From Pseudomonadota bacterium (GTDB lineage Bacteria; Pseudomonadota; Gammaproteobacteria; Burkholderiales; JABEVD01), in NCBI GenBank assembly GCA_021835845.1, contig JAKBJU010000001.1, positions 12,908 to 76,907 of the forward strand: a stretch of DNA of 64,000 bases, read 5' to 3'. A model generated the notes under the pieces. That model ran no database searches, was not told where the DNA came from, and was given only the letters and a program-made list of their open reading frames with translations. Position numbers and translations under genes: made by a program. Positions 12,125-26,318 of the stretch are shown here, in pieces; position 1 is the first letter of the stretch, and each line of letters opens with the position of its first letter.

Positions 12125-12144
12125 AAAAACCGGGATTTTCCCGG
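12125..12144 (-). terminator. Rho-independent terminator-like hairpin upstream of ardC
   Basis: Minus strand reads CCGGG-aaaat-CCCGG followed by TTTTT. Separates the 12330-12629 gene from ardC. Confidence 0.6.
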
Positions 12145-12329: not shown

Positions 12330-12629
12330 CTAGTCGAAATCGATTTGAACCGCCCGGATCGAGCGTATGCGCTGGTCCGGGAAAGGGATGATTTCGGCTT
12401 GTTGAAGCTGTTGAAATTGCTGCAGCTGGTATTGGTTGCGGATTCCCGCCTTTTGCTGTTCCTCGACTTCGTGCCTGACAATAAAGAAGAGAGCGGCGGC
12501 CCTCATCGCGCCAAGCCATGCGAGAAGCGCGATGAAGCTCCATAAGCCGTGAGTTTTCGGCAAAATGTAGGCTATTGCGCCGGTCAGAATTGAAGCGGTT
12601 GCGACGACTTGAAGAAAGCGCGAAAACAT
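12330..12629 (-). CDS. Membrane protein, hypothetical
   Basis: 99 aa. Two hydrophobic helices then a Q-rich tail. Start overlaps the upstream stop (TGATG). Confidence 0.5.
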   Translation of the reverse strand: MFSRFLQVVATASILTGAIAYILPKTHGLWSFIALLAWLGAMRAAALFFIVRHEVEEQQKAGIRNQYQLQQFQQLQQAEIIPFPDQRIRSIRAVQIDFD

Positions 12630-12877
12630 CAGTCTAGCTCCTTGAATTTTTTCCAGAGAATGCAGGTTTTCTCGGTTGCCCAGTCCGCGAATCTCGAATT
12701 GAGCGCGTCGAGAAAGCTCCTACGCTGTTGCTGTTGTGCTGGAGCGGGGAGAGAAACCGTCCCGGTCCCGCCGGTTGCAAGCGCCTTGAGGTAGGCGCTC
12801 GCGGTCAAGCCTGCTGCGAGCGCCCGAGATTCGAAAGCCTGGGCCTCGTCGTCCGTGAAATCGATTGAGAGTTTCAT
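12629..12877 (-). CDS. Ribbon-helix-helix-like protein (MobC/CopG-like fold)
   Basis: 82 aa. MKLSIDFTDDEAQAFESRALAAGLTASAYLKALA fits strand-helix-helix. ATGA coupling with the upstream gene. Confidence 0.5.
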   Translation of the reverse strand: MKLSIDFTDDEAQAFESRALAAGLTASAYLKALATGGTGTVSLPAPAQQQQRRSFLDALNSRFADWATEKTCILWKKFKELD

Positions 12878-13647: not shown

Positions 13648-13702
13648 GATGACTCCTTTTGGAAGGGTGATGGGGACAGTCTAAACCGCCCCCGGAAATC
13701 CA

Positions 13703-14659: not shown

Positions 14660-14973
14660 GCTCCTTCGGTCGAGATGTGGACGCGGTGGTGATGCGCGAC
14701 ATGGTGCATGTGCGCCGCTGCATGCTGCGGTTTTGCTGGCGGCTGGGGGTGAACCGGGCCGTGGGTCAGCATTGCAAGTTCCATGAAGATGCCGAAAACG
14801 CCGACTGCTGCGAAGAGCTTGAGGTAGGGCCGGAAAATTATGTAGATGACGCCAGCGCCTGCGCAAATTGCGAGCGAGAGGGTGAAGCCTGCCCATGGGG
14901 CGCAGCCGAAGAAGAGGACCAAAAGTGCGGCAATCTTGACGTAAGTCGTTTTCTTGAATTCAGGCATTTTCAT
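14656..14973 (-). CDS. Small membrane protein with a His-rich C-terminal tail
   Basis: 105 aa. Three hydrophobic segments. Tail reads PQHAAAHMHHVAHHHRVH. Confidence 0.5.
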   Translation of the reverse strand: MKMPEFKKTTYVKIAALLVLFFGCAPWAGFTLSLAICAGAGVIYIIFRPYLKLFAAVGVFGIFMELAMLTHGPVHPQPPAKPQHAAAHMHHVAHHHRVHISTEGA

Positions 14974-15243
14974 GTTGTTTCTCCATTTTCGACCCGGCTT
15001 CCCGCCGTATGAATCGCGTTTTGTTTCGGCAAGGGAGGAAAGGCAAGAAATTCGACCGAAGCCGCAGCCCGAAGGGACCGGGTGACGGCGAACCCGAAGG
15101 GGGCGAAGCCTTACTTGCTTTTCCGAGCGCCGAAACGATCTTTGCGATTCGGGGCGGGATGCAGGGCGAAGGAGAATTGAAAATCCAAATTCAAAGACGC
15201 CCTGGTGCCGCTTGATTCATCTTCCCATGCGCCTGGGATACCA

Positions 15244-15471
15244 CTATTCGTGGGTGTCGAGCACGCGGAAAGCGTCTTCTGTGAATTCGGCTAAAGCTGC
15301 ATCGCCTCGGGTCAGCGCGTGAATCTGGATTGCTGCCAGCACGGCCTCAAGGTCAAGCCCGGCATCTTGTCGCAAAACCCGGATTGCAGAGTGCAGCGGA
15401 TTTGCGGGAACCCCAAGCTCACGAAGTCGTGCATGTCCGAGGTCTTGAGATGAAGTCAGAGTTGTTTCCAT
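15244..15471 (-). CDS. Hypothetical protein
   Basis: 75-aa ORF with a weak AGGA RBS. No recognised domain. Confidence 0.4.
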   Translation of the reverse strand: METTLTSSQDLGHARLRELGVPANPLHSAIRVLRQDAGLDLEAVLAAIQIHALTRGDAALAEFTEDAFRVLDTHE

Positions 15472-15480
15472 GATTTTTCC

Positions 15481-15507
15481 TTTCGAAAACCCCGCCCGAG
15501 GGCGGGG
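15481..15507 (-). terminator. Rho-independent terminator after the lipoprotein gene
   Basis: Minus strand reads CCCCGCC-ctcg-GGCGGGG followed by TTTTCG, 13 nt after the stop at 15520. Confidence 0.65.
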
Positions 15508-15519
15508 GGTGGGTGGGTT

Positions 15520-16326
15520 TCAGGGTAAAACGATGGTGTCGCCGACGCGGGGGGCCGTCGGCGTGACAACCGAGCCAGTGCCGCCCGCAAAGCGCTCGTA
15601 ATCGACCCGATAGCCGTCCGTCACGTCGCGGGTGACGTTGTGACACGTCGTGGTGGGCGTGTGCTGGATGTGGTCGCCGGTGAGCGCCCCGACAATAGCG
15701 CCGAGGGCTGCGGCTGCGACTCGTCCGTTTCCGTTGCCGATTTGAGACCCGGCCATGGCTCCGGCTGCGCCGCCCAGCCCGGCCCCCAGGTACTGGGGAT
15801 TTGTCGAGTTCTGCTGCTCGCAAACCTGCTGACTGACCTGGTGCGTGATGGGCACGACATCGATGACGCGGGCTGCATGCTGCCGAGCCTCGTTTGCGTT
15901 CGCGATCACGTCGGGCGGAAGCTGCTCGTCCTGCCGTGCCTCATGACGTGGACGGTGAGCTTCGCGGTGCTTGTGCTCCTTCGGCTTTTCCTCTGCCGGT
16001 GCTGCTGCCGGGGCGGAAGCTGCGGCCTGCCCTGCCCTGGCTTGCTGCAAAAGCTCGGAAAACTGCTCTTGCGTGAGCGTTACCTGGCCGGGACCCGATG
16101 CGACGGGGGCGGAGGCAGGAGCCGAAGCCGGGACCACGGCGGAAGCTGCAACGGGAGCCGAAACAGGCGCGGGAGCCGCCGGGACCACGGCGGAAGCCGG
16201 GGAAAGCGTGAGCGCCGAAGCCGGAGTCTTGGCCGGGGCGGTGGAGCCGCCGCCGAAGATTCCGGGCATGTCGCAACCGGCGAGGCCGATAGTCGCGAGA
16301 GCGACGATGAGAGCGGTTTTCTTCAT
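15520..16326 (-). CDS. Lipoprotein with Ala/Pro-rich linker and glycine-zipper (17-kDa antigen-like) domain
   Basis: 268 aa from ATG 16326. Lipobox LAGC. GAGLGGAAGAMAGSQIGNGNGRVAAAALGAIVGALTG glycine zipper. Confidence 0.7.
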   Translation of the reverse strand: MKKTALIVALATIGLAGCDMPGIFGGGSTAPAKTPASALTLSPASAVVPAAPAPVSAPVAASAVVPASAPASAPVASGPGQVTLTQEQFSELLQQARAGQAAASAPAAAPAEEKPKEHKHREAHRPRHEARQDEQLPPDVIANANEARQHAARVIDVVPITHQVSQQVCEQQNSTNPQYLGAGLGGAAGAMAGSQIGNGNGRVAAAALGAIVGALTGDHIQHTPTTTCHNVTRDVTDGYRVDYERFAGGTGSVVTPTAPRVGDTIVLP

Positions 16327-16327
16327 G

Positions 16328-16834
16328 TTACTGTCCTTTCGTGGTTTGAGGGATGATGAGGATCGCGCAAGCCGGGTCGCCAATCAGGTGTTGCGAGAGC
16401 TGCGCCCGCGCTTGAGCCAGCGGTTGAATGCATTGGCTTTTGACCGTAAAGCTCTTGTTGACGAGTGGCGCGGTGATGAGCGCCTGGCCGCCTGCTTGTT
16501 GCTTGATGAAGACCGGAGAAAAAGCTGTCTGCTGGTCCGTCGCTATGATCTCGTGGCAGCCGTATTTCTGCGCTGCCGCTTTGATCGCCGCATTCGTCGC
16601 TTCGCGGCTCGTCATGGTGCAGCCGAGGAGCACGGTTTCATGTGCCTGCGCGGGCTTCGCGCCTGCGGCGAGTGCGGCGGGAAAAGTGACCTCGACCGTC
16701 TTTCCGTCGCGGTTCGGTATGATGATCACGGGTGCGACGGCTGTCGCTTCTGTGCCGCCGGTCTGCGGGCTCTGCGCGCAACCTGCGACGATTCCCGCAA
16801 GTGCGAGTACGGCGATGGGTGTGAATTGTTTCAT
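16328..16834 (-). CDS. Lipoprotein, hypothetical
   Basis: 168 aa from ATG 16834 (AAGGAG RBS). Lipobox IVAGC. Confidence 0.65.
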   Translation of the reverse strand: MKQFTPIAVLALAGIVAGCAQSPQTGGTEATAVAPVIIIPNRDGKTVEVTFPAALAAGAKPAQAHETVLLGCTMTSREATNAAIKAAAQKYGCHEIIATDQQTAFSPVFIKQQAGGQALITAPLVNKSFTVKSQCIQPLAQARAQLSQHLIGDPACAILIIPQTTKGQ

Positions 16835-16887
16835 GTCTGCTCCTTTTTCGATGTGACAATCCAGTGTCTCACTGGTCCGAAAAACGA

Positions 16888-17661
16888 CTATTCGCGGTCG
16901 TCGGCGAAAAACCAGACGCCCCGGAAGCATTCGCGGTTTCGAATGCGGCGGTCAGCGAAGACTTCGCGAAGCGCTTCCGACTTGTGAACGATGCATTCGC
17001 CGTGGACCGAATCGTATAAACCGTTTACAGTGTTTTGGCCGTCGTAATAATTGCCAGCGGGCGAGTAGTCGGAAAGGCTCCAGGGCATTACTGCTGCGCC
17101 GAAACGCGGATTTTTCGGGTCGCGCACGTAAAGGCTGGGACAAACCCCGCGCTTCTCCCGGTCGCGTCCGTCGCTGAAATCGAAGAGCGACGGGATGAAA
17201 CAGATCGGAGAAACCGAGAAAGTGTTTTCTGTCGCAACCGAATCAGCGGCCACAATCTTTCCGGGGTGAGCGCCGTCCGGAAAAAACTCCATTGGTTCTA
17301 TATGGATTGCGAGTCGAGCCGTGGGCGGTGGCGGCGTCAAGCTGCGCGGCTGAGCTTGTGCCTGAATCCGCAACTCCGTAGCTTGATGCTGGTCGGCGAA
17401 GAGTCCGCCGGTCGCCGGTGTTGCGGCTGCTGGCTGAGCGGAAGCGGGAGCGTCGGGGTCTTGAAGGCCAAAAAAGAAGTAGTAGCCAAGTTTCTTTTCC
17501 CAGTGCGGTGCGGGCCCGAAGAAAATTCCGGTGGTGCTGTTGCCCTGGTCGCTGGTCGTCGCGCTCTTCGAAGAGAAAAGCGAGGATGCGCCGAAGGCGA
17601 TGACCGCGACGGCAATTCCGAGCGCTGCGAAACTCAGAACGGTTTGTGTTTTCTTGTCCAT
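16888..17661 (-). CDS. Exported or membrane-anchored hypothetical protein
   Basis: 257 aa from ATG 17661. N-terminal signal anchor (VLSFAALGIAVAVIAFGASSLF). C-terminal Cys-containing domain of unknown family. Confidence 0.55.
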   Translation of the reverse strand: MDKKTQTVLSFAALGIAVAVIAFGASSLFSSKSATTSDQGNSTTGIFFGPAPHWEKKLGYYFFFGLQDPDAPASAQPAAATPATGGLFADQHQATELRIQAQAQPRSLTPPPPTARLAIHIEPMEFFPDGAHPGKIVAADSVATENTFSVSPICFIPSLFDFSDGRDREKRGVCPSLYVRDPKNPRFGAAVMPWSLSDYSPAGNYYDGQNTVNGLYDSVHGECIVHKSEALREVFADRRIRNRECFRGVWFFADDRE

Positions 17662-17766
17662 GTCCTTTTCCTTTCCGGGGGCAGCGCCCCCGCTGTTGAG
17701 AGATGGGGGGCAGCGCCCCCCCCGTCTTGCCGCGACGCTCAATGCGTCCCGGACTCCGGGAAACTG

Positions 17767-18051
17767 TCAGCGTCCAATGCCTTTAATCGCTCCGAAAACA
17801 ACTTCTGCAAGCCATTTCGCGAAGCGAAAGAGCCACTTCGCGGGCAAAATCAGGCCGTCAAGGCCGCCCTGCCATGCGCGGTGCCACTCGCCATGACGGA
17901 TGCCGGAAACCAGAAAGCCGCCGACGAATGTGAGGCCCGAGGCCATTGCGAGGATTGCGAAGCCCTGGGGCGTGAAGGCAATCTGGATCGCGCCGAGGAA
18001 TACGCGGATTGCGATGATGAAGCCGAAAAGCATCAAGCCGAGGCGAATCAT
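17767..18051 (-). CDS. Small membrane protein
   Basis: 94 aa from ATG 18051. ATGA overlap with the upstream 64-aa gene. Three hydrophobic segments. Confidence 0.45.
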   Translation of the reverse strand: MIRLGLMLFGFIIAIRVFLGAIQIAFTPQGFAILAMASGLTFVGGFLVSGIRHGEWHRAWQGGLDGLILPAKWLFRFAKWLAEVVFGAIKGIGR

Positions 18052-18242
18052 TTGAGCTGCCCTCCCGTTTTTTCGATTGCTGATTTGAGGAATTCGAGCG
18101 CATGGTCTGCCGAAATCGGCAGGGTTCCGCCGGTTTTCGTCCAGATGAAGATCATCAAATAGATGCCACCGATTCCGCAGGAAAGCGCGAACACGATGCG
18201 CCAGATGAAGGGCATGGAAGATTGTTGAGTTTGAGATGCCAT
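18048..18242 (-). CDS. Small membrane protein
   Basis: 64 aa. One TM (FIWRIVFALSCGIGGIYLMIFIW). First gene after the Replic_Relax-like gene. Confidence 0.45.
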   Translation of the reverse strand: MASQTQQSSMPFIWRIVFALSCGIGGIYLMIFIWTKTGGTLPISADHALEFLKSAIEKTGGQLK

Positions 18243-18245
18243 TTG

Positions 18246-19019
18246 TTAAGCTCCTTTCTTCTGTGCGAATTTCGAATAAGAGAAAAAGGCGAATCGAGCG
18301 CGATGAGAATCCGTCACCTTGACGTTTTCGCCTTCGAACCGGATGGTTTCGACCCGCGCAAAAGCTCGCTCTACAAGCTTTTCGAGGCCGTCGGGGCAAA
18401 CGTAAGCGACAAAAGCGTAGCGCCCTGCTTTAATCGATTTGAGATGCGCGAGCAGCACAGATTCATACCGCCGGGGGGTCTTGATGGTCCTCTCGATCTC
18501 GATTGCGACTCGGTCGCCCTTCGGGCTTGTGGCGATGAAATCGGGGATTTTTTCCGAGTCCTTGCCTTTCCCTTTCGCTGCCGTTCGCTCCCTGGGCGAT
18601 TCCTGCATTTTCTGCAATCGCTCGGGCACGAATGCGGTCCAGCCTGCGGCTTCGGCCTTGATCCGCATGCGCTGGCCGTCCAGTTTGTGAGCGAGAAATG
18701 CCGGGGACGTGCGCCCGAGTTCGTGGAAAGGCATGTCCCATTTGTCGATGAGCGCGAGGCCATGCGGGGTGATGCCGTAGATTTTCGATTTCCGGCCCGC
18801 GTTCTCTATTTCTTCCGACTTGAGCGCACCGTCGCGCTCCAGGCCGCCGACTGTGGATTGTGCGGCCCGTCGGCTGCATTGCAGCAGCAATGCGGCGATT
18901 TCAACGGTCGAGAAGACTTCGCCAGATGCGAGGAAATCAAGCAGTATGCGGCGTTTCGCTTCTGCGCGAGCCTGCTTTTCAGCGTAAGTCATGGCCGGGA
19001 GTCGTTCTGTTTTTTCCAT
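18246..19019 (-). CDS. wHTH plus PD-(D/E)xK-like protein, replication-relaxation (Replic_Relax)-like
   Basis: 257 aa from ATG 19019 (GGAG 9 nt upstream). The ORF could extend to 19040. N-terminal wHTH (ILLDFLASGEVFSTVEIAALL...ERDGAL), H-containing middle (FLAHKLDGQ), PDFIATSPKGDRVAIEIERT core. Confidence 0.6.
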   Translation of the reverse strand: MEKTERLPAMTYAEKQARAEAKRRILLDFLASGEVFSTVEIAALLLQCSRRAAQSTVGGLERDGALKSEEIENAGRKSKIYGITPHGLALIDKWDMPFHELGRTSPAFLAHKLDGQRMRIKAEAAGWTAFVPERLQKMQESPRERTAAKGKGKDSEKIPDFIATSPKGDRVAIEIERTIKTPRRYESVLLAHLKSIKAGRYAFVAYVCPDGLEKLVERAFARVETIRFEGENVKVTDSHRARFAFFSYSKFAQKKGA

Positions 19020-19091
19020 TTCTTCATCTCCAAAAAACACAATTCAATTTTCCCATGCGTTCGAAAAACCATTGTTTGCCGAGCCGCCTTT

Positions 19092-19165
19092 CCCGCGAAG
19101 CGGGTTAGTCCGGCGCGTGAGCGCCTGGGGGTCTCGCGAAGCGAGTTCGGGGCTCGCGAAGCGAG
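19092..19165 (+). repeat. Cluster of four mini-hairpins (three GCGAAGC-core, one GTGA-loop)
   Basis: cccGCGAAGCggg 19092-19104, GGCGCgtgaGCGCC 19112-19125, ctcGCGAAGCgag 19133-19145 and again at 19153-19165. Confidence 0.8.
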
Positions 19166-19212
19166 TAAATTGATGGTCCGGCGAAATGGGGCGGGTCTCC
19201 CGCCCCTGGTGG

Positions 19213-21024
19213 TCAATCGAAGCTGATTGTCTCGGGTTGGTCGAGGTCGAGGCCGTCGGTCTCGACTATGCGCGAAGTCGCGGGCGGCAAGTCGAACGGT
19301 GCTTTCTCGGTGCCCGAATCGAGCGCGACGGACTCGGAAGCGCTCTTCAAGCTCGCCCCTTCAACCTCGCGAATTGCGATTGCTTCTGGCGACTTCGCGA
19401 CTCTCAGCGGTCGAATCGAAACGAATTTCGGAAGTCCGCTTCCATACAGAACCGCTACCGATGCGGGCAGATTCAACAGCATGTTTTCATCAATGAAATA
19501 GCGCTCGGCTTGTCGAATCGACCTGCGAGCATCGACGGTTTCAGAGAGAGCCAGATTCCGCTCAACCGTCCGGCTCTCGTCGTCCACGAGGATCTTCCCG
19601 GACATGCTTGCAAGCCATTCGGCTGTGACCGGGGATTTAACCTGGTAGCAGAGCTTGACGCGGCAATTCTCAACGACAGCATCAACGACAGCATCAGGGT
19701 TGAGATCCTTGGTGCAGTCTTTCAAGTCGCCCAAGCTCTGGTGAGCAAGGATCAGGTGGACACCTTTGTCGCGAGCGGCCCCCAGTCCTTCAAGCGCTGG
19801 GCGGGAAAGGTGGTATTTCACTTCGTCAAGGACAATACAGATTTTGCGAAGTTCTCCGGCCATGCGGTCGCGCCGTTCGGCAAGCTGCAACAAGCGCACA
19901 AGCAAGATGCGCTGCGCGGTCTTCACGATGTCGTTTCGCATCGATCCGACGATGTAGACACATCCGCCGTTTTCGATAACTTCGGCGAGCGATACGCCCC
20001 CAGCGGTCGCGTTGATCGACGGTGTTTCGGCCATTTCGCGCAGCTTGCCGTAGAACTTCTCGGCTTCGCCTACCTGGTCTTTTCGCGCCTCGAAAACCTC
20101 AGCGATGGTTAGATTTTCAGCGGCCATTTGCCGGGCGGTCGCAAGTGCTTCACGACGATCTGCAATGCCGTAGAAGTCGCTGGCGTCGCCTTTCTCGATC
20201 AAGCTGAACCCGGCTTGAAACAACTCGAAAGCTTCATCAGCCGTTGCGCCTTCGAATGGGTTAAACTGCGCCCCGTTCGGGCGGTTGAGGTTGATGTAGT
20301 AATACGGCTTGCCGGTTCGCTGTGCTGCGGCATGCATGACCGATGGAGCCCACTCGTCGTTTTTCGGGTCGCAGAAAAAAACTGCTTCTCCGCGCTCAAG
20401 GAATTGAGACGCCATGACGCCCAGGCTCACGCCTTTACCCGCTCCGGTCGTGCCGACCACCTGAACGTGAGGCGCGGAAGTGCCGCCGCCGAATTCGATG
20501 TAGATAGGTTTTTTCTTCTCGTCCAGGCCGAGAAAAACGCCCTTGCTCTTATCAAGAAATTTCACCGGATCGAACGCGGCGGCGGAATCAGGAAGGTGCT
20601 TTTCGATCTCGCGAACGTCGGTCTTTCTGTTCCGCTCGCGCTCACTCGTAACCGTAGCCTTGCCTTTGAGCTTGTCGATTGCTTGGACGCCATCGCGCAG
20701 AAGAAAGATAGCGCCCGCGATTCCCGCTGCTGCGGAAATAATGAAAATGCCTATATCCAGCCAGCCGGGAAACAAAGTCGGAACGGTCCCGTCATCCCGA
20801 GGATAAAAAGTTACTTTCGAGAGCGTTGGGATAACAAAAAGGATTGCGAGCGCTGCCCATGCTGGCAGCGAAAACAGAGAGAAAAGCCGGGATAAAAAAC
20901 CTTCTTTGTTCTGCGCTTTTCGGTTATGCGAGAGGATTAAAAAGCCGAAACCAAAACCGAAAAAGCGGAGAGCGTGGAATGCCAAAAGCAGGCAGCCGAG
21001 CACGTAGAAATTCAGAACTTGCAT
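19213..21024 (-). CDS. Type IV secretion coupling protein (TraD/TraG/VirD4 family)
   Basis: 603 aa from ATG 21024 (AGGAGG RBS). N-terminal TM helices, Walker A VVGTTGAGKG, Walker B CIVLDEV, AHQSLGDLKD. The upstream part of the 668-aa ORF is rejected. Confidence 0.85.
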   Translation of the reverse strand: MQVLNFYVLGCLLLAFHALRFFGFGFGFLILSHNRKAQNKEGFLSRLFSLFSLPAWAALAILFVIPTLSKVTFYPRDDGTVPTLFPGWLDIGIFIISAAAGIAGAIFLLRDGVQAIDKLKGKATVTSERERNRKTDVREIEKHLPDSAAAFDPVKFLDKSKGVFLGLDEKKKPIYIEFGGGTSAPHVQVVGTTGAGKGVSLGVMASQFLERGEAVFFCDPKNDEWAPSVMHAAAQRTGKPYYYINLNRPNGAQFNPFEGATADEAFELFQAGFSLIEKGDASDFYGIADRREALATARQMAAENLTIAEVFEARKDQVGEAEKFYGKLREMAETPSINATAGGVSLAEVIENGGCVYIVGSMRNDIVKTAQRILLVRLLQLAERRDRMAGELRKICIVLDEVKYHLSRPALEGLGAARDKGVHLILAHQSLGDLKDCTKDLNPDAVVDAVVENCRVKLCYQVKSPVTAEWLASMSGKILVDDESRTVERNLALSETVDARRSIRQAERYFIDENMLLNLPASVAVLYGSGLPKFVSIRPLRVAKSPEAIAIREVEGASLKSASESVALDSGTEKAPFDLPPATSRIVETDGLDLDQPETISFD

Positions 21025-21905
21025 TGCTTCCTCCTGAAAATGAAATTGCTTCTCTAGGATCGCATGGGAAAGAAATACCACTAAATTGAGCGGTAAGCAT
21101 GGGTTAAAGCGCACCTTCGATTCCGTAGATGCGCTCGAAATCGTGTGGCTTGGCTGTGACGGCAAGGCGCAGCCGCGCAGCCCGAAGGGCGAAGGCAAGA
21201 CGGACTCATCGTCGCGCAAGTCGCGGTGATTTTTCGCGACTGAAGGGGGACCGGCGAAGCCGGGGCAAGACGCAGACCGAAGGTCGTCGCGTCGAGCCTC
21301 CGAGGATCAGCGAAGCGGTCCGAGGATCGGGGGGAGCCATGAGTCCCGAAGGGACCGAAGCCAGCCAGCGTCGAGTAAGGACGGCTTCATCGTCCGCACC
21401 GAGACCTGGATGGGCATGGGGGGCGAAGCCCCGGCGACCCGAGCGCGAAGCGCCAAGGGTCCAAGGTGCACTCTCCGAGCCTCGCTTTTTTGCGAGCGCA
21501 GCGAACAAAAAAGAAGAGAAGAGAGTGCTCCGCAGGACCCGCAGCCCTCCGGGGTCTTTGAGCGAAGCGAAAAAGACTCTGGAGGGGCGGGGTCGAGCGG
21601 TGGAAGGACCGGCGAAGCCGGGACTGGAAGCGCTCGACCCCGCCCGTCCAGCGGACGGGTCGGGTCGCCCGCTTTTGACGTGCCCCTGGGACTGCGACAG
21701 CAGGCCAGGAAGAGCCGCCGCGTCCAGCGGCGAAGCGATTCCGGCAGGGGATGCCTTTGACTTTGCTTGTGTTTTTGACTTTCCCAAAGTCAAGCCCGAA
21801 ACACTTAAGCGCATCATGAATATCAGAGTGCGCTAATGGTCGAAGCTGAAATCACACATGAAATGTATCGATTTCGGTGAGACGAAGAAGCCCCGCGAGA
21901 AGCCC

Positions 21906-21953
21906 CCACGAGAAGCCCCATAGTCCCGGCGCTTCTTCCGGGGCTTCTCGTGG
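21906..21953. repeat. 14-bp inverted repeat (CCACGAGAAGCCCC / GGGGCTTCTCGTGG) with a 20-nt spacer
   Basis: Read directly. Preceded by two more direct copies of GA(A/G)AAGCCCC at 21884-21906. Confidence 0.8.
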
Positions 21954-21976
21954 AGCTACTCGACACGAAAAACGCC

Positions 21977-22004
21977 AAAAAGAAAGCCCGGAAAAATCCG
22001 GGCT
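21977..22004 (-). terminator. Rho-independent terminator of the 22032-22223 gene
   Basis: Minus strand reads AGCCCGG-attttt-CCGGGCT followed by TTCTTTTT, 28 nt after the stop. Confidence 0.7.
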
Positions 22005-22031
22005 TAGAGGCGGGGAGAGTGCGGGGAAAAT

Positions 22032-22223
22032 TTAGGCGGGGCGGCTGGGATTTTCGCGAGCGATTTCAGCGAAAGCTGCGAGTAAAACATCGTCGGGGAG
22101 ATGCAGGATTTTTGCTTTTTGAGCGAGAGCGAAAATCGATTCTTTCCGAGCTTCGTCTTTCTGCGCTTGCGCGATTTGCTTTTCGAGATCGTCGCGTTTT
22201 TTCAGAAGAGTTTCGAGCTTCAT
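22032..22223 (-). CDS. Small coiled-coil protein, RSF1010 MobC / Ti TraD-like architecture
   Basis: 63 aa with AAAGGAAAG RBS. KKRDDLEKQIAQAQKDEARKESIFALAQKAKILHLPDDVLLAAFAEI parallels the coiled-coil plus LxAAxxxxL layout of RSF1010 MobC. Weak call. Confidence 0.4.
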   Translation of the reverse strand: MKLETLLKKRDDLEKQIAQAQKDEARKESIFALAQKAKILHLPDDVLLAAFAEIARENPSRPA

Positions 22224-22256
22224 GGTTCTTTCCTTTCGTCGTGAAAATTGAAAAAA

Positions 22257-22535
22257 TCAGCGGGCGTTTTTCCAGCCGCTGGCTTCAGCCGCATGAAAAT
22301 CCTGGATCGATTTCGCGGTGGGTGAGAGGTAAGCTCCGAGCAGCATTCCAGCCCCGAAAATCGATGCGACGATCAGCACGCGGTTAAAGATGACCAGCGC
22401 CTTGAAAAGCCGAAGCCGATTCCTCATCCTGCGGAGAGTGGCCGCTGAAATCGGCTTGCCGTCGGCGTCGAGATGAGGGAAAAGCTCTTCATGGAGAAAA
22501 GACGATGTGCCTTTTCGAAAGTAACGTTCATGCAT
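22257..22535 (-). CDS. Membrane protein, hypothetical
   Basis: 92-aa ORF with one TM (ALVIFNRVLIVASIFGAGMLLGAYL). Overlaps the upstream gene by 8 nt. Confidence 0.4.
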   Translation of the reverse strand: MHERYFRKGTSSFLHEELFPHLDADGKPISAATLRRMRNRLRLFKALVIFNRVLIVASIFGAGMLLGAYLSPTAKSIQDFHAAEASGWKNAR

Positions 22536-22752
22536 TGCGTGGCTCCTTTCCGTCGATGATGCGTTCTTGAAAAATTCGGGAAATCATGTCGCGCTGCTTC
22601 TCCGAAAGATGAATTCCGGTGTCGGGGTCTTCGCCGTATTTCTCAAGCCGCTGCGCCTGGTCGGCGATGTAGGATTTCTCCCATGCGCTCAGCTTGTCCG
22701 TCTGAGCTGAGAGCGTGCGGATTTTGTCGAAAATTGAAACTGGTTCGGTCAT
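22528..22752 (-). CDS. Hypothetical protein
   Basis: 74 aa from ATG 22752 (GGAG upstream). Helical and acidic. Confidence 0.4.
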   Translation of the reverse strand: MTEPVSIFDKIRTLSAQTDKLSAWEKSYIADQAQRLEKYGEDPDTGIHLSEKQRDMISRIFQERIIDGKEPRNA

Positions 22753-22894
22753 GATGTGGCTCCGGTGGTTGAACATAGAATCATTCTCGGGTAAATTTTC
22801 CAAACCACTAAATTGAAACTTTTCTGGTTGATGCGATGGGCTCCGTGCCAACCAAACTTTCAACTCATGAGCCTAAAAATTGGAGGGAAAAAAC

Positions 22895-23092
22895 ATGCGT
22901 TTAGTCTTGGGGATTCTGCTTCCGTGGCTTCAGTTTTTCACTATCGGTCGTCCCATCGCGGGAATAATATGCCTGATTCTTCAACTCACGCTCATCGGCT
23001 GGATCCCTGCCGCGATTTGGTCCATCTACGCCCTGAGCCAGTACAAGACAGACAAGAAAATTGAAAAGGCATTGGGTCAAGCAAAAGCCTGA
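22895..23092 (+). CDS. Small two-TM membrane protein
   Basis: 65 aa from ATG 22895 with GGAGGG 8 nt upstream. LIGWIPAAIWSIYAL motif. One of only four plus-strand genes in the island (with int, 8821-9285 and 25440-26132). Confidence 0.5.
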   Translation: MRLVLGILLPWLQFFTIGRPIAGIICLILQLTLIGWIPAAIWSIYALSQYKTDKKIEKALGQAKA

Positions 23093-23096
23093 TTTT

Positions 23097-23169
23097 GGGG
23101 CGGCGATAACCCTACGCCGACTTGTCGGGCGAGGGGGCGGCGATAACCCTATGCCGCCTGCCTCGCCCT
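23097..23169 (+). repeat. Composite palindromic module R1 (downstream flank of the primase gene)
   Basis: GGCGGCGATAACCCTACGCCG then GGGCGAGG-G-GGCGGC-gataaccctat-GCCGCC-TG-CCTCGCCC. About 85% identical by eye to 24098-24169 in the same orientation. Confidence 0.8.
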
Positions 23170-23187
23170 CATGCGCATGTTGAGTTT

Positions 23188-24066
23188 TCAGGATGGAAAA
23201 AGGCGCTCTTTTGCGGCGGCCAAAGTCCGTCGAGCATACTTTTCTGCGGACCTCCCTTTTCGAGTCGCTGAAATTGCCAGCAGCCTCACAATTTCTTCGT
23301 CCTCCACCCCTTCTTTCACCTTCAAAATCGTCCATTGGAAGTCCACTTCTGACTGCGTTTTTCCGGGGCGTCTGTTAGATGTCACGGGGGGCAGCGGCTT
23401 GCTGCCGCCGACTGGAACGGCAGATTTTTTCGGTCGCGGATTGTTTGCGGGCGTCGTGACGGCTGCGGGCTTTATCGTCTCAACATCGAGCGGCTTTCCC
23501 TTTGGCCGCTTCAAAACGTTCACCCAACAGCCGCCCCGCTTGTGATTTTTGAATCCGGGGATTCGTCCTGGCTGAATTCCGCTCGTCGCGGCTCGATCTG
23601 CGCCGACTTTCTGTGCGAGAATCGCTTGCAGCCGCTGCCGCTCGCGTCCGTCGATGCGTTGATTTGTTATGAGCCAGATCTGGCAATTGTTCGGCGAAGT
23701 CTCGATAACAAAGCATCGATTGAAGTCAGCGATTTCAAAGGCCGTCTTCCTTGGCACGTCGTCAAGAAAAAGGTATCTGTACGATGCGATGCTGTCCGCG
23801 CTCGAAGCTGCGGGTCGAAAATAGACGTTCCCGCCGAGCTTGTTTTCTTTGCGAAGGTCGGCCAGCAAATCCTCAACGTATTTCATTCCGTACCGTTCGC
23901 GGGTACGCGCCATTGTCTGCGGCGGGTCTGTGAGTCTGCCACCATCAAACACGCGCCATGCTGACTTGTCCGACGGGTCGCGGGAAGAGAAAAGATTGAA
24001 TGCCTGGCAACCGACTTCTTCAGCAAGTTCGATCATGAATCTCATTTGAATTTCTTCGATGCTCAT
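23188..24066 (-). CDS. repB: RepB'-type DNA primase (RSF1010 RepB' family)
   Basis: 292 aa. Motif-by-motif match to RSF1010 RepB': GGNVYFRPA / GNDVYIRPA, YLFLDDV / LVLVDDL, VIETSPNNCQIW / VVETSPKNYQAW, GRIPGFKNHK / GRLAGFTNRK, C-terminal ...RKGRSAEKY / ...SRGRSAEEI. Confidence 0.85.
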   Translation of the reverse strand: MSIEEIQMRFMIELAEEVGCQAFNLFSSRDPSDKSAWRVFDGGRLTDPPQTMARTRERYGMKYVEDLLADLRKENKLGGNVYFRPAASSADSIASYRYLFLDDVPRKTAFEIADFNRCFVIETSPNNCQIWLITNQRIDGRERQRLQAILAQKVGADRAATSGIQPGRIPGFKNHKRGGCWVNVLKRPKGKPLDVETIKPAAVTTPANNPRPKKSAVPVGGSKPLPPVTSNRRPGKTQSEVDFQWTILKVKEGVEDEEIVRLLAISATRKGRSAEKYARRTLAAAKERLFPS

Positions 24067-24097
24067 TCCCTGCACTCCAAAAAACCCTACCCCCTAT

Positions 24098-24169
24098 GGG
24101 CGGCGATACCCCTATGCCGCCCGTGACGGGCGAGGGGGCGGGGTGACCCTATCCCGCCTGCCTCGCCCT
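24098..24169 (+). repeat. Composite palindromic module R2 (upstream flank of the primase gene)
   Basis: GGCGGCGATACCCCTATGCCGCC then GGGCGAGG-G-GGCGGGgtgaccctatCCCGCC-TG-CCTCGCCC. Direct repeat of 23097-23169. Confidence 0.8.
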
Positions 24170-24312
24170 ACACGCTCTGAGAGCACTGAGGCGTTGAGAC
24201 TTGCAGCCCCGCCCTAGGGGCCTGACTGTGATAAAAAGCATCACAGATTTTGGTCGTTGATTTTAGATGCATTAAAATTCAACGCATCTATTCGCCACCC
24301 CCCCCAAAACCC

Positions 24313-24663
24313 TCAATCTAGCAAAGGGTTTTTCCGGGGTGAACGGAAAAAGGTCCGGGTATGGCTCCAATTCCCACGTCCTTTCCCGCCGAGGTTCCTC
24401 CTCTCCAGCCAACCTTTTTCTACAAGCTCCTTCGTGTACTTGATCCAGCTGCTTTCTTCGAAGCCCGCGAGCCTCTTCAGAATCTTCTTTGTGGGCTTCT
24501 GCGGCAGGGAAAACGCATAGATGAGGATTGACCTCGCGGGTCCCGATAAAGCGGTTTCAGGGTCCAAAATTTTGAGCGGGACGAGTGCTGCGGTGTCGGT
24601 CGATTCCTCAACGTCATATTCTTCCTCAGGCCCGTCTTCAGGTGAACGAGTGTTCTTGGCCAT
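24313..24663 (-). CDS. Winged-helix-like DNA-binding protein, hypothetical
   Basis: 116 aa from ATG 24663. C-terminal half (ILKRLAGFEESSWIKYTKELVEKGWLERR) looks like a wHTH. Confidence 0.5.
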   Translation of the reverse strand: MAKNTRSPEDGPEEEYDVEESTDTAALVPLKILDPETALSGPARSILIYAFSLPQKPTKKILKRLAGFEESSWIKYTKELVEKGWLERRNLGGKGRGNWSHTRTFFRSPRKNPLLD

Positions 24664-24664
24664 G

Positions 24665-25045
24665 TCACACCTCGTCATCCCCGAACAGATCCCCGGTCCG
24701 ATCCGCTGCTTCCTTCTCTGCTTTCTTCCGTCGCCCCATGCGCGGCCCCGTCTTCGCGCCGTCCTCGACTCGACTTTCTAGCCGAGCGATCTCTCCCGAA
24801 ATCGCTTCGATCACGTCTTCGAGACCGAGGAAGAAACTCCATTCCGCGCCACCCAGCGCGAATTTCCAAGCGATTGAGATGAGGTCCTGTATTTCTTCGC
24901 TCTTGAGACTTGCTAAGATCGCATCGTGGGTTGAGCGCTTGTGCTGGTTGCGGAGCACTTTAAAGTGCTCAGAAAGGGCTTTGAGGGCAATATCGCCCGC
25001 CTCCTCGGGCGAAACCGAGCGGGTGAACAGAACGTCCTGACTCAT
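24665..25045 (-). CDS. Hypothetical protein
   Basis: 126-aa ORF coupled to its neighbours. No recognised domain. Confidence 0.5.
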   Translation of the reverse strand: MSQDVLFTRSVSPEEAGDIALKALSEHFKVLRNQHKRSTHDAILASLKSEEIQDLISIAWKFALGGAEWSFFLGLEDVIEAISGEIARLESRVEDGAKTGPRMGRRKKAEKEAADRTGDLFGDDEV

Positions 25046-25317
25046 TGCGCACCTCCAGCCTGGCGGCGTGCAATCGTCTCGGCTTTCGTGGGGCGGCCCC
25101 TCGTCGCCGCTTTTTCAGCTTTGGGCTGGCTCGTTGCGCTGCTGGCAAGAGGAAGACTGTTCAGCCATTCGATCACATCGGATTCGAGCCAGACTTTCAT
25201 GTTCCCAATAAGCCTGGTGGGGGGGAGTGTTTCTGGCTCGCGACTCTTCCGGCCTTCAATCGTCAGTACGCTGACGCCCATGATTTTCGCGAGATCAGAA
25301 TTCTTGAGGATTTTCAT
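25042..25317 (-). CDS. AlpA/excisionase-family HTH protein
   Basis: 91 aa. DLAKIMGVSVLTIEGRKSREPETLPPTRLIGNMKVWLESDVIEWL matches the AlpA/Xis pattern. First gene of the long minus-strand operon set. Confidence 0.7.
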   Translation of the reverse strand: MKILKNSDLAKIMGVSVLTIEGRKSREPETLPPTRLIGNMKVWLESDVIEWLNSLPLASSATSQPKAEKAATRGRPTKAETIARRQAGGAQ

Positions 25318-25369
25318 ACCGCGCCTTTAAATTAAAGTGAACACGGTTCAATGCTATTCTTTCCTTGCA

Positions 25370-25398
25370 AAAACTGTTATTGCGTAAATAATAGTTTT
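25370..25398. promoter_or_regulatory. 12-bp imperfect inverted repeat operator in the divergent control region
   Basis: AAAACTGTTATT-gcgta-AATAATAGTTTT with one mismatch, in the AT-rich 122-bp gap between the divergent genes at 25317 and 25440. Confidence 0.55.
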
Positions 25399-25439
25399 GG
25401 TGTAGCATTATTTAGGAACACTCACGAGGGGGCGGAATC

Positions 25440-26132
25440 ATGACTCGACCTGCAAAGCGCGGACGCGGACGGCCAAGGATCGAAGAGACGGAAAAGCAAC
25501 AAAGTCTCGCTCTGACGCAAAAGCTCGCACGCGAGATCAAAGACCTTTCTGGGCTGACGGTTGAGGCGCTAGTGCAGAAAATGCGCTTGAGTCGCTACAA
25601 GGGGATTGCGACAGACGACAGCACTGGGGTATGGAGAAAGTACCTGTGCGCAAGGGCGATCATGTCGCCCGCTCGTATGCGAGACGTTTCAGCATTCGCA
25701 TGGGAGAAGGGTTGGAGAGGGGAAACGGTACGTACGGTTTTAGTTGGTCGCGGAAATGTCGGCACGCTGTCCGAAAGCAATGCAGATGCAAAAAAGATGG
25801 AGGAGTTGCAGGCCGCGATTTTTAAAATCTTTGGTCACGGACTATCGTTTGACGATCCCGCTGTAGACGAACAAATAGCTCGGATCAAGCGGCTTGCAGA
25901 CATCGCGATTCACGCTGCGGTCAATGACGCATTCAAAAAGCACGAACAGCACTGCGCGAAAGAAGCAGAAGAGAGCCATGAACGTTTCGGGCAAATGACG
26001 GCAGAAGAGCTTCGCGAATGGGATGAAAAAACGTGTCAGGATCACGAAGAAGCTCATATCTTCGTGCCCGACATCGAACACCCCGGCTTCCGTCATGCAA
26101 TCCCCAAAAGCCAGCTGGGAAAGAAGGGGTAG
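25440..26132 (+). CDS. Hypothetical protein with an AT-hook-like N-terminus
   Basis: 230 aa with GAGGGGG RBS. N-terminal KRGRGRPR. Divergent from the Xis-like operon. Confidence 0.5.
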   Translation: MTRPAKRGRGRPRIEETEKQQSLALTQKLAREIKDLSGLTVEALVQKMRLSRYKGIATDDSTGVWRKYLCARAIMSPARMRDVSAFAWEKGWRGETVRTVLVGRGNVGTLSESNADAKKMEELQAAIFKIFGHGLSFDDPAVDEQIARIKRLADIAIHAAVNDAFKKHEQHCAKEAEESHERFGQMTAEELREWDEKTCQDHEEAHIFVPDIEHPGFRHAIPKSQLGKKG

Positions 26133-26153
26133 GTAGCAAAAGCTAGGGATTCC

Positions 26154-26196
26154 TTGGGTGAAATTTGGGTGAATGAAAACACCCAAAAAACCCAAG
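26154..26196 (+). promoter_or_regulatory. TTGGGTGA repeats (two direct, two degenerate inverted): putative arm sites
   Basis: TTGGGTGA at 26154-26161 and 26165-26172 with 11-bp phasing. ACACCCAA at 26179-26186 and AACCCAAG at 26189-26196 on the other strand. Confidence 0.5.
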
Positions 26197-26244
26197 AACT
26201 CACAAACTTTCACAAGGGAATGCTAGGTAACTTACTGATATTTA

Positions 26245-26318
26245 TGGAGGCGGGGGTCGGAATCGAACCGGCGTCCACGGCTTTGCAGGCCGCTGCATAA
26301 CCACTCTGCCACCCCGCC
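26245..26318 (-). tRNA. tRNA-Cys (GCA)
   Basis: 74 nt: GGCGGGGTGGCAGAGTGGTTATGCAGCGGCCTGCAAAGCCGTGGACGCCGGTTCGATTCCGACCCCCGCCTCCA. Anticodon loop CUGCAAA, T-loop GGTTCGATTCC, CCA end. Confidence 0.93.

Follow-up and report, generated by a model that had tools for sequence, protein, structure and literature searches.

Paired hairpin modules around a RepB'-type primase gene on a tRNA-Cys-integrated mobilizable element: possible single-strand signals

Introduction

RepB' of plasmid RSF1010 is the textbook example of a primase that starts synthesis only at elaborate hairpin sites. Initiation by RepB' is confined to the hairpin ssi sites and requires both domains of the enzyme (PMC8567376). In ssiA the hairpin spans nucleotides 7-27 and has a 9-bp stem with a GAA triloop, a single-stranded hexamer on its 5' side and a GTG start on its 3' side (PMC8567376). 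Both ssiA and ssiB are 40-nt sites, placed on opposite strands of an oriV with iterons and working with RepA and RepC.

Folded DNA starts second-strand synthesis in other systems as well. The plasmid sso, the sso of ICEBs1 and the Frpo or ssi signals of leading regions are strand-specific structures with lineage-specific sequences. Signals of the sso and Frpo type are read by host RNA polymerase or by host primosome proteins. In plasmid pRN1, replication requires in cis the regions on either side of the primase operon, and the origin lies in the downstream one (PMC4234260).

Here, a RepB'-type primase gene is described from a 64-kb stretch of DNA, referred to as the window. The gene is bracketed by two direct copies of a hairpin-forming module. 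Together the modules appear to be a pair of structure-constrained hairpin cassettes on the primase arm of a mobilizable element integrated in tRNA-Cys.

An integrative mobilizable element

The element that carries the modules (Table 1) combines att repeats in a tRNA gene, a tyrosine integrase, a relaxase and a coupling protein with no full mating-pair apparatus, and is thus an integrative mobilizable element. No ORF longer than 400 aa lies between 7.4 and 19.2 kb, so that no gene for an ATPase of VirB4 size fits there. Among the island ORFs scanned, none matched an IncQ-type RepA helicase or RepC initiator in Pfam or NCBIfam. Neither an HUH transposase nor an integron integrase was detected in the island, and its tyrosine recombinase scores 27.7 bits against an integron-integrase cut-off of 265. 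The missing RepA and RepC matches, taken with the coupling protein and the MobC-type relaxase, make a transfer-linked role on single-stranded DNA plausible. The initial annotation had preferred priming of a single transferred strand to vegetative replication, a view that the setting fits, given the island's integrase, coupling protein and MobC-type relaxase.

Of the candidates for an oriT, or for other signals in single-stranded DNA, the better conserved is the hairpin-rich stretch upstream of the coupling-protein gene, with its family-invariant core. An oriT at the modules was considered and rejected; the core is preferred, adjoining as it does the coupling-protein and MobC genes. That the family-conserved hairpin region lies here, elsewhere than at the modules, is an observation that tells against a primase signal.

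Table 1. Features of the element and of its primase locus, numbered from the first nucleotide of the window
Feature	Position	Strand	Description
Integrative mobilizable element	7634..26291		18.6 kb, in tRNA-Cys; holds the modules, primase and Pmp3
50-bp direct repeats	7634-7683 and 26242-26291		Copies of the tRNA-Cys 3' end; element boundaries
Integrase	7743-8747	+	Phage_integrase, 4e-28
ArdC	11153-12016	-	
NikA-like	12629-12877	-	
MobC-family relaxase	18246-19040	-	NF041423, 8.7e-53, 179 bits, just below the cut-off of 200
Coupling protein	19213-21219	-	T4SS-DNA_transf/TraG-D_C matches
Hairpin-rich non-coding stretch	21250..21740	+	Upstream of the coupling-protein gene; seven GCGAAGC mini-hairpins, all on the + strand
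Family-invariant core	21368-21431	read on -	GGTCTCGGTGC, hairpin, TTACTCGACGC
Pmp3/YqaE small membrane protein gene	22895..23092	+	Convergent with primase; absent here in relatives
Module A	23097..23169	+	Between the convergent stops of Pmp3 (23092) and primase (23188)
Module A, small hairpin	23099-23121		GGCGGCG-ATAACCCTA-CGCCGAC; one stem mismatch
Module A, spacer	23122-23126		
Module A, large nested hairpin	23127-23168		GGGCGAGG, bulged G, GGCGGC, loop GATAACCCTAT, GCCGCC, TG, CCTCGCCC
RepB'-type primase gene	23188..24066	-	292 aa; AEP (archaeo-eukaryotic primase) catalytic domain and C-terminal three-helix domain (residues 238-289)
Two extra unpaired loop-motif copies	24084-24097	+	ACCCTAC, CCCCTAT; directly 5' of module B
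Module B	24098..24169	+	Within the primase leader, 31 nt upstream of the ATG
Module B, small hairpin	24098-24122		GGGCGGC-GATACCCCTAT-GCCGCCC
Module B, spacer	24123-24127		
Module B, large nested hairpin	24128-24168		Inner stem GGCGGG/CCCGCC, loop GTGACCCTAT
Family-conserved block upstream of primase	24226..24300	-	...TCTAAA...ACCAAAATCT, then palindrome
Palindrome	24226-24246		CTGTGAT-N7-ATCACAG; arms vary between elements
HTH protein	24313-24678		121 aa; upstream of primase

A RepB'-type primase without close relatives

Pfam, the catalytic residues and the predicted fold all confirm the earlier naming of the gene product as a RepB'-type primase. The protein matches RepB_primase (PF16793) with E=3.5e-18 and 66.6 bits (cut-off 24.3), and PDB 3H20/3H25 at ~8e-7 in phmmer. 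Residues D77, D78, D134 and R145 of RepB' are all identical in the primase, as counted by hand on the phmmer alignment with 3H20/3H25, and the corresponding D102, D103, D157 and R168 of the primase are invariant across an alignment of 20 family sequences. The AlphaFold model (pLDDT 81) finds its best Foldseek matches in 3H20 (E=9e-12) and 3H25 (target-normalised TM-score 0.70). The three C-terminal helices are predicted with a pLDDT of 85-97 and, going by the full-length alignment and shared motifs, correspond to the helix bundle of RepB'; these motifs, S-x-x-D/E-F/W and further on Y-A-x-R-T, are presumably common to both proteins. The start codon at 24066 is backed by the alignment of homologues; the public annotation has 24036.

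A search for primase homologues returned 21 matches, the next best being 36% identical. The gene adjoining the primase has no homologue but itself, and all other assemblies with the primase are 100% identical to the window. In public sequence data, the primase lineage is therefore one without close relatives.

Architecture of the modules

The coordinates, common orientation and approximately 85% identity first reported for the modules are right: MAFFT gives 85% column identity, and blastn between the two primase flanks aligns them as direct repeats (86% over 73 nt, E=5e-11). They do flank the primase gene, though not immediately as had been claimed, module A ending 18 nt past the stop codon (23188-23190) and module B 31 nt before the ATG. 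Each module consists of a small hairpin and a large nested hairpin, both made of one 23-nt unit, GGCGGCGATAACCCTATGCCGCC, which gives four units in all. A repeat search places the copies at 23097, 23134, 24097 and 24134, with a spacing of 37 nt inside each module. At three mismatches or fewer the unit has three matches in the 64 kb, all within the modules, and shuffles expect none. No further module copy occurs in the window, its 45 kb of host DNA included. That the primase gene stands between the sole two copies in the 64 kb is an observation in favour of a primase signal. The motif MCCCTAY has 12 matches in the same 64 kb, and the six at the primase are all on the + strand (four in module loops, two unpaired).

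Hairpins were compared by a direct hairpin scan; in the MAFFT alignment one of the four units is out of register. A large hairpin with a GGCGGC/GCCGCC stem and an 11-nt loop had been ascribed to both modules, which is accurate for module A but not for module B, where the inner stem is GGCGGG/CCCGCC and the loop has 10 nt. By hand count on the alignment and folds, the loss of one stem base in module B is offset by a compensating G->C change that brings back six pairs. Further pairing (ATA/TAT) is possible within the 'loop' of the large hairpins and would reduce it to an ACCC or CCCC tetraloop. Again by hand count, the two copies differ at 4 of 42 paired positions, one of which breaks a pair, and at 6 of about 30 unpaired positions. 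Both large hairpins are intact despite 14% divergence, which argues for constraint; two diverged copies and no relatives make covariation statistics impossible. Conservation between the copies stops exactly at the hairpin feet in the MAFFT alignment, so that no common single-stranded binding hexamer or start triplet is visible.

Folded as DNA, both strands of both modules reach -25 to -28 kcal/mol (z -4.2 to -4.8), a stability matched by 0 of 200 shuffles. The two strands are equal under DNA parameters, and an asymmetry arises only with RNA parameters, through G.U pairs. The + strand is then favoured in module B (-54.6 vs -46.8 kcal/mol) and in module A (-41.5 vs -38.0 kcal/mol), and two A->G changes in module B stay paired only as G.U wobbles. 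The GCGAAGC mini-hairpins upstream of the coupling-protein gene are likewise on the + strand, where module B folds better counting wobble pairs, and this agreement is also on the side of a primase signal.

Surroundings of the modules

The family-conserved block upstream of the primase and its palindrome probably constitute a promoter and operator. In the family alignment, module B falls within a window-specific stretch of about 130 nt between this block and the primase start codon. Being downstream of the block, it lies inside the leader and not upstream of everything, and it takes the place of a hairpin that in relatives overlaps the ribosome-binding site. Since module B interrupts a conserved leader and module A adjoins an acquired gene, both look like insertions. 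The acquired gene, Pmp3, is 77-83% identical in DNA sequence to Pmp3 genes on plasmids of Cupriavidus, Burkholderia and Ralstonia. Joint arrival of the module with Pmp3 was rejected, as the closest plasmid Pmp3 genes have no module downstream.

A scan of 22700-24700 found no Rho-independent terminator at either module, and no U-tract follows any of the hairpins on either strand; the nearest T6 run lies 13 nt past module B on the minus strand. No sigma-70 promoter was found at the modules, inspection by eye revealed no sigma-54 motif, DnaA box or attC core site there, and no Rfam family matched. A REP-like GTAG head adjoins the large hairpin of module B and is missing at module A.

Comparison with related loci and with ssiA and ssiB

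None of six related loci has a bracketing repeat or a comparably strong hairpin at the primase, the best 80-nt DNA folds being -10 to -18 kcal/mol there vs -25 to -29 kcal/mol here. The initial annotation had offered the absence of the modules next to orthologous primases as grounds against its proposal; they are indeed absent from these six loci. The nearest primases are only 34-37% identical. With the nearest primases this distant, an adjoining gene without homologues and all other assemblies identical, one would not expect to recognise cognate sites by their sequence. In relatives without the modules, the primase is found in the same syntenic slot, and no iteron arrays were found at the primase in relatives.

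Three relatives (L002, L003 and L044) carry three hairpins each, with covarying stems and the loop G-AT(G/A)AA(A/T)C-T. The 500-nt region that holds them is 77-83% identical where the primases are 72-90% and the coupling proteins only about 50% identical. The coupling proteins of the window and of L044 share 70% identity, yet two of the three hairpins are missing from the window. Hairpins of this kind therefore travel with the primase arm. The module loop GATAACCCT agrees with GATAAAACT of the relatives at 7 of 9 positions and has the same G.T or G-C closing pair, and the two kinds of hairpin have opposite orientations relative to the genes. A loop that resembles the relatives' lineage-specific hairpin loops, and pairing kept by a compensating change, are further observations favourable to a primase signal.

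A degenerate pattern of the 23-nt hairpin gave 20 single matches in 185,579 representative genomes, in unrelated phyla, at about the number expected by chance and mostly in coding-looking DNA. The same pattern gave 19 single, chance-like matches in JGI metagenomes and 2 in IMG/VR. A looser pattern of the outer-stem palindrome was non-specific (>120 matches), none of its matches being module-like. One metagenome contig (L041) has one similar hairpin, without the primase or related genes, and blastn of the module against plasmids and phages returned nothing below E=2.

Alignment to ssiA and ssiB, a check proposed with the initial annotation, gave no significant similarity for either module on either strand when the sites of the IncQ plasmid pMS260 were used. 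Local alignment scores of 11-21 compare with shuffle means of 13-15 and with 31 for the ssiA-ssiB control, and the best score was equalled by 10-11 of 300 shuffles. In pMS260 the ssi sites do lie on opposite strands and the modules face the same way, as had been pointed out.

Possible functions of the modules

The modules may be lineage-specific single-strand hairpin signals for the primase, functional analogues but not homologues of IncQ ssiA and ssiB. This reading is only tentative, and hairpins acting in RNA or a selfish palindromic repeat come close to it in likelihood. The tests run lend no positive support to the original idea of cognate ssi sites or an origin, which they leave neither shown nor excluded. 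As signals for the primase, the modules would act once the element becomes single-stranded after relaxase-driven transfer or rolling-circle copying. The + strand, presumably the relevant one in vivo, would then fold into a small and a large hairpin at each module and present (A/C)CCCTAY. The element's RepB'-like primase would load at these hairpins and start complementary-strand synthesis there. Under this mechanism only one of the strands ever becomes single-stranded, and for that reason both signals would lie on it. Also on the side of this reading are the RepB' catalytic residues and fold of the primase, RepB'-type enzymes being in need of hairpin sites, and the hairpins that travel with the primase arm. 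Weighing against it are the want of similarity to ssiA and ssiB, the divergence right at the hairpin feet, six related loci with neither bracketing repeats nor hairpins of like stability, the insertion-like look of both modules, their orientation opposite to the relatives' hairpins, and a strand asymmetry confined to RNA parameters.

It is conceivable, if rather doubtful, that the modules represent an undescribed class of priming signal for RepB'-family primases, with tandem small and nested large hairpins displaying (A/C)CCCTAY, both on the strand that is single-stranded during transfer of a CloDF13-like (MOBC) element. Each primase lineage would then have its own hairpin set, and that of the relatives would be their G-ATGAAAC-T hairpins.

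A role in RNA is a possible alternative, though again rather doubtful. Module A would serve as end point or insulator for the convergent transcripts of Pmp3 and the primase, and module B would be an attenuator, stabiliser or target in the leader. The positions suit such a role, since module A, between convergent genes, lies as close as 5 nt past the Pmp3 stop as well as 18 nt past that of the primase, and module B lies downstream of the promoter/operator-like block, 31 nt from the ATG, where relatives have their ribosome-binding-site hairpin. The A->G changes that pair only as G.U and the preference of RNA parameters for the + strand also agree with it, but the strand that wobble pairs favour runs antisense to the primase, and upstream of module B neither a gene nor a promoter is evident on the + strand. 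In addition, the hairpins lack U-tracts, the terminator scan was empty at the modules, Rfam gave no match, and a terminator needs neither a conserved loop motif nor extra unpaired CCCTAY copies. In a sharper version, a Pmp3 transcript ending in module A (+ sense) could be an antisense regulator of primase translation; module A and module B, the latter in the primase leader, have about 86% complementarity, and pairing between their loops could extend over 7 nt (ACCCUAU/AUAGGGU).

It is unlikely that the modules are a selfish or neutral palindromic repeat, whether REP/BIME-like, MITE-like or a local duplication at the acquisition of Pmp3, that landed twice in neighbouring gaps and has no dedicated primase function. 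Repeats of the REP kind typically occupy the gaps between genes, above all convergent ones, as nested, GC-rich palindromes that no U-tract follows. The modules, intergenic GC-rich nested palindromes without U-tracts, conform to this type, and, set against the layout of the family, both copies look inserted. Intergenic gaps are few in the island, so that adjacency by chance is not very unlikely. A repeat of this kind is disfavoured by the want of any other copy in the 45 kb of host DNA of the window, in the 185,579 representative genomes, JGI metagenomes and IMG/VR, where pattern matches are single and chance-like, or in the plasmids and phages searched by blastn. There are no target-site duplications or terminal inverted repeats beyond the palindrome itself, the REP-typical GTAG head adjoins only one copy, and both large hairpins are intact at 14% divergence.

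Less probable again is recognition as duplex DNA, in which four iteron- or operator-like 23-bp units would be bound by the C-terminal domain of the primase or by the HTH protein, so as to form either a two-part replicator, as ori/crr does in P4, or a repression loop in the excised element. The four direct units have a conserved asymmetric centre, lie 37 bp apart within each pair and are near the primase gene, just upstream of which small HTH proteins are encoded. Essential flanks on both sides of a primase operon have a precedent in pRN1 (PMC4234260). However, no helicase or initiator was detected in the island, relatives have no iteron arrays at the primase, and intramolecular pairing, not duplex recognition, is what the compensating change in the stem and the strict conservation of the outer stem suggest.

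Very improbably, the modules are sites at which site-specific or single-strand recombination, of the kind seen at integron attC sites or IS200/IS605 ends, swaps or removes a module-primase-module cassette: hairpin-forming repeats do stand in direct orientation around one gene, and the primase and coupling-protein arms do differ in evolutionary history, but the primase keeps its syntenic slot in relatives without modules, the module ends GGGGCGGCG and CCTCGCCCT have no RYYYAAC/GTTRRRY core sites of the attC organisation R''/L''-L'/R', and no HUH transposase or integron integrase was detected in the island, whose tyrosine recombinase scores far under the integron-integrase cut-off.

If the modules are signals for the primase of the proposed class, hairpin-dependent, sequence-specific priming would not be confined to IncQ plasmids and would be a general, co-evolving trait of RepB'-type primases on integrated elements. 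Should the modules or the other hairpins of the family be cognate sites, they would offer a natural system for the co-evolution of primase and site, and the element family would also bear on how mobilizable islands turn a transferred strand into duplex. As RNA-level hairpins or selfish repeats, they would be an ordinary finding. Whatever their function, the window supplies an 18.6-kb mobilizable island of defined extent, mosaic in its history and with a likely core of oriT.

Relation to known systems

The locus recalls that of pRN1, with its primase-polymerase ORF904, where cis-essential regions lie on either side of the primase operon (PMC4234260); pRN1 differs as an archaeal plasmid of unrelated sequence whose two flanking regions are not copies of each other. 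With the IncQ plasmids RSF1010 and R1162 it shares a primase of RepB' fold with the same catalytic residues and nearby GC-rich hairpins in two similar copies. Unlike the IncQ sites, the modules are 72 nt long, have two hairpins each and lie on the same strand, 1 kb apart around a gene. Their stems have 6-7 bp and 8+6 bp with 10-11-nt loops or an ACCC tetraloop, in place of the 9-bp stem and GAA triloop of ssiA and ssiB, and their flanks diverge right outside the hairpins, whereas ssiA and ssiB have a conserved 5' hexamer and 3' GTG. The element is moreover integrated, and no repA, repC or iterons were detected in it, unlike IncQ. The modules thus depart from IncQ-type ssi sites in sequence, in hairpin geometry and flanks, and in the arrangement on opposite strands with iterons and RepA-RepC.

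Compared with sso signals, the modules appear to lack the conserved motifs RSB and CS-6 and promoter-like hexamers. They are like REP and BIME sequences as GC-rich imperfect palindromes without U-tracts in intergenic positions, including between convergent genes, which are sometimes paired; REPs, however, occur in tens to hundreds of copies on the host chromosome and in related genomes, and of the modules only two copies were found, both in a mobile element, with none in the public collections searched. The transfer region recalls the CloDF13-type (MOBC) order, in which the MobC-family relaxase gene comes after the coupling-protein gene and a structured non-coding region lies upstream. In contrast to CloDF13, the arrangement here belongs to an element integrated at a tRNA gene, which also carries genes for a RepB'-type primase, ArdC and a NikA-like protein.

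Primase gene and hairpin modules

The ORF between the two modules carries the Pfam RepB_primase domain (66.6 bits, cut-off 24.3), and identical residues align with D77, D78, D134 and R145 of RepB' (phmmer alignment, our own residue count). Its AlphaFold model (pLDDT 81) has 3H20 and 3H25 as nearest structures and ends in a three-helix domain that is predicted with confidence. On these grounds the RepB'-type primase of the initial annotation stands. The 72-bp direct repeats said to bracket it are confirmed as well. Modules A and B share 85-86% identity in the same orientation, and blastn between the primase flanks recovers the match at E=5e-11. Each module holds two copies of a 23-nt unit, GGCGGC-GATAACCCTAT-GCCGCC, four in all, with a spacing of 37 nt inside each module. 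The first unit forms a small hairpin and the second, flanked by GGGCGAGG...CCTCGCCC, a nested large hairpin. DNA folding makes both strands of both modules far more stable than shuffled controls (z -4.2 to -4.8).

Two details of the earlier description need amending. The GGCGGC/GCCGCC inner stem does not hold for module B, where one base is lost, a G->C change on the opposite arm restores six pairs and the stem reads GGCGGG/CCCGCC. Further pairing (ATA/TAT) is possible within the 11-nt loop and would reduce it to an ACCC or CCCC tetraloop. Immediately 5' of module B, the + strand has the loop motif twice more, unpaired, as ACCCTAC and CCCCTAT; counted with the loop copies, six of the 12 window matches to MCCCTAY lie at the primase, every one on the + strand. 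The double modules are real and non-random, and are probably under structural constraint.

Coordinates of the features discussed, in the window and in related loci (L002, L003, L044, L045, L046)
Feature	Locus	Position	Strand	Remark
Direct repeats	window	7634-7683 and 26242-26291		50 bp, 98% identical; copy tRNA-Cys 3' end and bound the 18.6-kb island
Tyrosine integrase	window	7743-8747		adjoins left repeat
ORF with MuF C-terminal domain	window	8821-9285	+	
GCGAAGC mini-hairpins (three)	window	19095-19162	+	
Coupling protein	window	19213-21219		
ORF	window	21129-21836	+	
ORF	window	21206-21817	-	
GCGAAGC mini-hairpins (seven)	window	21254-21736	+	
Invariant-core block	window	21368-21431	-	
	L002	4710-4775		
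	L003	6616-6681		
	L044	3018-3083		
Three hairpins	L002	4675-4867		
	L003	6581-6771		
	L044	2860-3179		
Imperfect palindrome	window	21579-21651		73 nt, 77% self-complementary
Pmp3/YqaE small membrane protein	window	22895-23092	+	cargo, convergent with primase
Module A	window	23097-23169		
Primase	window	24066-23188	-	
Module B	window	24098-24169		
Conserved primase-upstream block	window	24226-24300	-	
	L002	2590-2650		
	L044	690-745		
	L045	1255-1320		
tRNA-Cys	window	26245-26318	-	3' end copied by direct repeats
Primase-ATPase region	L046	6126-15457		

A mobilizable island and its mosaic relatives

The island also encodes an ArdC protein, a NikA-like protein, a coupling protein and a MobC-family "replication-relaxation" protein (NF041423, 8.7e-53). 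With no gene of VirB4 size, and with neither RepA nor RepC detectable, the island is an integrative mobilizable element rather than an IncQ-like replicon. Just beyond its left end are the host genes nifA and nifB; on the right are tRNA-Cys, tRNA-Gly, a CDP-alcohol phosphatidyltransferase gene taken to be pgsA, and uvrC. Just inside the island, beside the integrase, an ORF in the window's lowest-GC part (47-50%) encodes a phage MuF C-terminal domain (1.4e-10).

The primase belongs to a small family (21 homologue matches, next best identity 36%), and other assemblies with this primase are all 100% identical to the window. Six related loci were retrieved for comparison, of which L002, L003 and L044 have in common the order small genes, primase, small genes, long non-coding stretch, coupling protein. 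The initial annotation had proposed looking for the modules next to orthologous primases, and they are absent from all six loci: in none does a direct repeat bracket the primase, and none has a hairpin of comparable stability in the primase flanks, where the best 80-nt DNA folds reach -10 to -18 kcal/mol versus -25 to -29 here. This absence is real, but the primases are too diverged for sequence to reveal cognate sites. In 185,579 genomes, JGI metagenomes and IMG/VR, scans for the pattern yielded single, chance-like matches only, and blastn of the module against plasmids and phages gave no match.

The window and L044 are 70% identical in the coupling protein and only 36% in the primase, whereas L002, L003 and L044 among themselves have primases 72-90% identical and coupling proteins only ~50% identical. 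These opposed patterns place a recombination boundary between the coupling-protein gene and the hairpin region. The elements are mosaic, and the window's primase arm is an orphan; the gene adjoining the primase has no homologue except itself. In the more distant relative L046, a RepB'-type primase lies beside an AAA_25 (RepA-like) ATPase, with a coupling protein, ArdC and a TrwC relaxase, so that in some elements the primase may be part of an IncQ-like helicase-primase pair.

Hairpins upstream of the coupling-protein gene

Non-coding DNA upstream of the coupling-protein gene contains the hairpin region that the family has in common. Its invariant core is GGTCTCGGTGC-[GGGACG-ATGAAAC-TGTCCC]-TTACTCGACGC, and the block around this core is ~80% conserved across elements whose proteins share only 35-50% identity. 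Because it adjoins the coupling-protein and MobC genes, this block is the best oriT candidate, probably the nick region for the MobC-family relaxase alongside. L002, L003 and L044 each have three hairpins at a kept spacing of 71 and 101 nt, with the loop G-AT(G/A)AA(A/T)C-T and fully covarying stems (e.g. GGGCAC/GTGCCC, GCCCGC/GCGGGC, ACCCAC/GTGGGT), and the window retains only the middle, core hairpin. It lacks the two lineage-specific hairpins of its relatives, but four hairpins peculiar to it lie at the primase. Among the three relatives the 500-nt hairpin region is 77-83% identical and tracks the primases, not the coupling proteins; taken together, hairpins in this family move with the primase arm.

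In the non-coding DNA that flanks the coupling-protein gene, GCGAAGC mini-hairpins form two clusters. Stems are extended in several of them, such as CCGGC-GAA-GCCGG (twice), and the island has 24 in its 18.6 kb versus 16 in the 45 kb of host sequence. The hairpin-rich stretch, which also contains an imperfect palindrome, is spanned by a long ORF on each strand, and the minus-strand ORF is a 203-aa gene in public annotation. The low-complexity translation of that ORF and the conserved DNA hairpins suggest that the stretch is non-coding.

The modules as apparent lineage-specific additions

Upstream of the primase, alignment reveals ...CTAAAG...ACCAAAATCT as a conserved block. The palindrome that comes next has different arms in each element (TGCGGAT.., TGCTGAT.., CTGTGTTGTGTT.., CTGTGAT..), and the arrangement resembles that of an autoregulated promoter whose operator is specific to each element. 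Module B lies inside ~130 window-specific nt between this block and the primase ATG, in place of a hairpin that in the relatives overlaps the ribosome-binding site. Module A adjoins the Pmp3 gene, which the relatives lack. For these reasons both modules look like lineage-specific additions. The Pmp3 gene has 77-83% DNA identity to plasmid copies from Cupriavidus, Burkholderia and Ralstonia, ~82% for those of Cupriavidus and Burkholderia, and no module lies downstream of the Cupriavidus and Burkholderia plasmid copies.

Possible roles of the modules

Sequence data lack the power to assign a function to the modules, and five readings were ranked by confidence. Tentatively placed first is that the RepB'-like primase uses them as hairpin signals, single-stranded and specific to this lineage. 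Its main support is circumstantial, namely hairpins that move with the primase arm and a likeness of loops: the module loop GATAACCCT matches GATAAAACT at 7/9 positions and is closed by the same G.T or G-C pair. A caveat is that the orientation of the module hairpins with respect to the genes is opposite to that in the relatives.

The second reading, somewhat doubtful, is that the modules act at the RNA level, as hairpins that insulate the convergent Pmp3 and primase genes or exert antisense control there. In the large hairpin of module B, two A->G changes stay paired only as + strand G.T or G.U wobble. RNA parameters favor the + strand in module B (-54.6 versus -46.8 kcal/mol for the other strand) and in module A (-41.5 versus -38.0 kcal/mol); under DNA parameters both strands fold equally. 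The + strand is sense to Pmp3, antisense to the primase and the bearer of the GCGAAGC hairpins. The pattern is compatible with + strand ssDNA or + strand RNA (the Pmp3 3' end, for example), and less so with hairpins in the primase mRNA.

That the modules represent a selfish or duplicated palindromic repeat is unlikely. Beyond the modules the 23-nt unit does not occur in the 64-kb window (shuffles predict 0). Of 42 paired positions, 4 differ between modules A and B, and only one of these changes breaks a pair; of ~30 unpaired positions, 6 differ. These are our own counts, in numbers too small for statistics. Duplex iteron- or operator-like sites, ranked fourth, are improbable, and recombination sites, ranked last, highly improbable.

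Comparison with IncQ initiation sites

In the IncQ plasmid pMS260, ssiA is found on the + strand and ssiB on the - strand, in line with the opposite-strand arrangement that the initial annotation had given for RSF1010. ssiA comprises six single-stranded nt, a 9-bp hairpin with a GAA triloop and a conserved 3' tail, in which synthesis starts at T32 (PMC8567376). The modules differ from it in geometry, and the proposed alignment to ssiA and ssiB gave no above-chance resemblance for either module on either strand. Conservation between modules A and B stops exactly at the hairpin feet, so that no common single-stranded flank or start triplet is visible. All defining features that were tested failed, and membership of the modules in the IncQ ssi family is rejected. 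The GAA triloop motif of the GCGAAGC mini-hairpins is common to the RSF1010 ssiA hairpin (PMC13037366). The modules themselves could still function like IncQ ssi sites.
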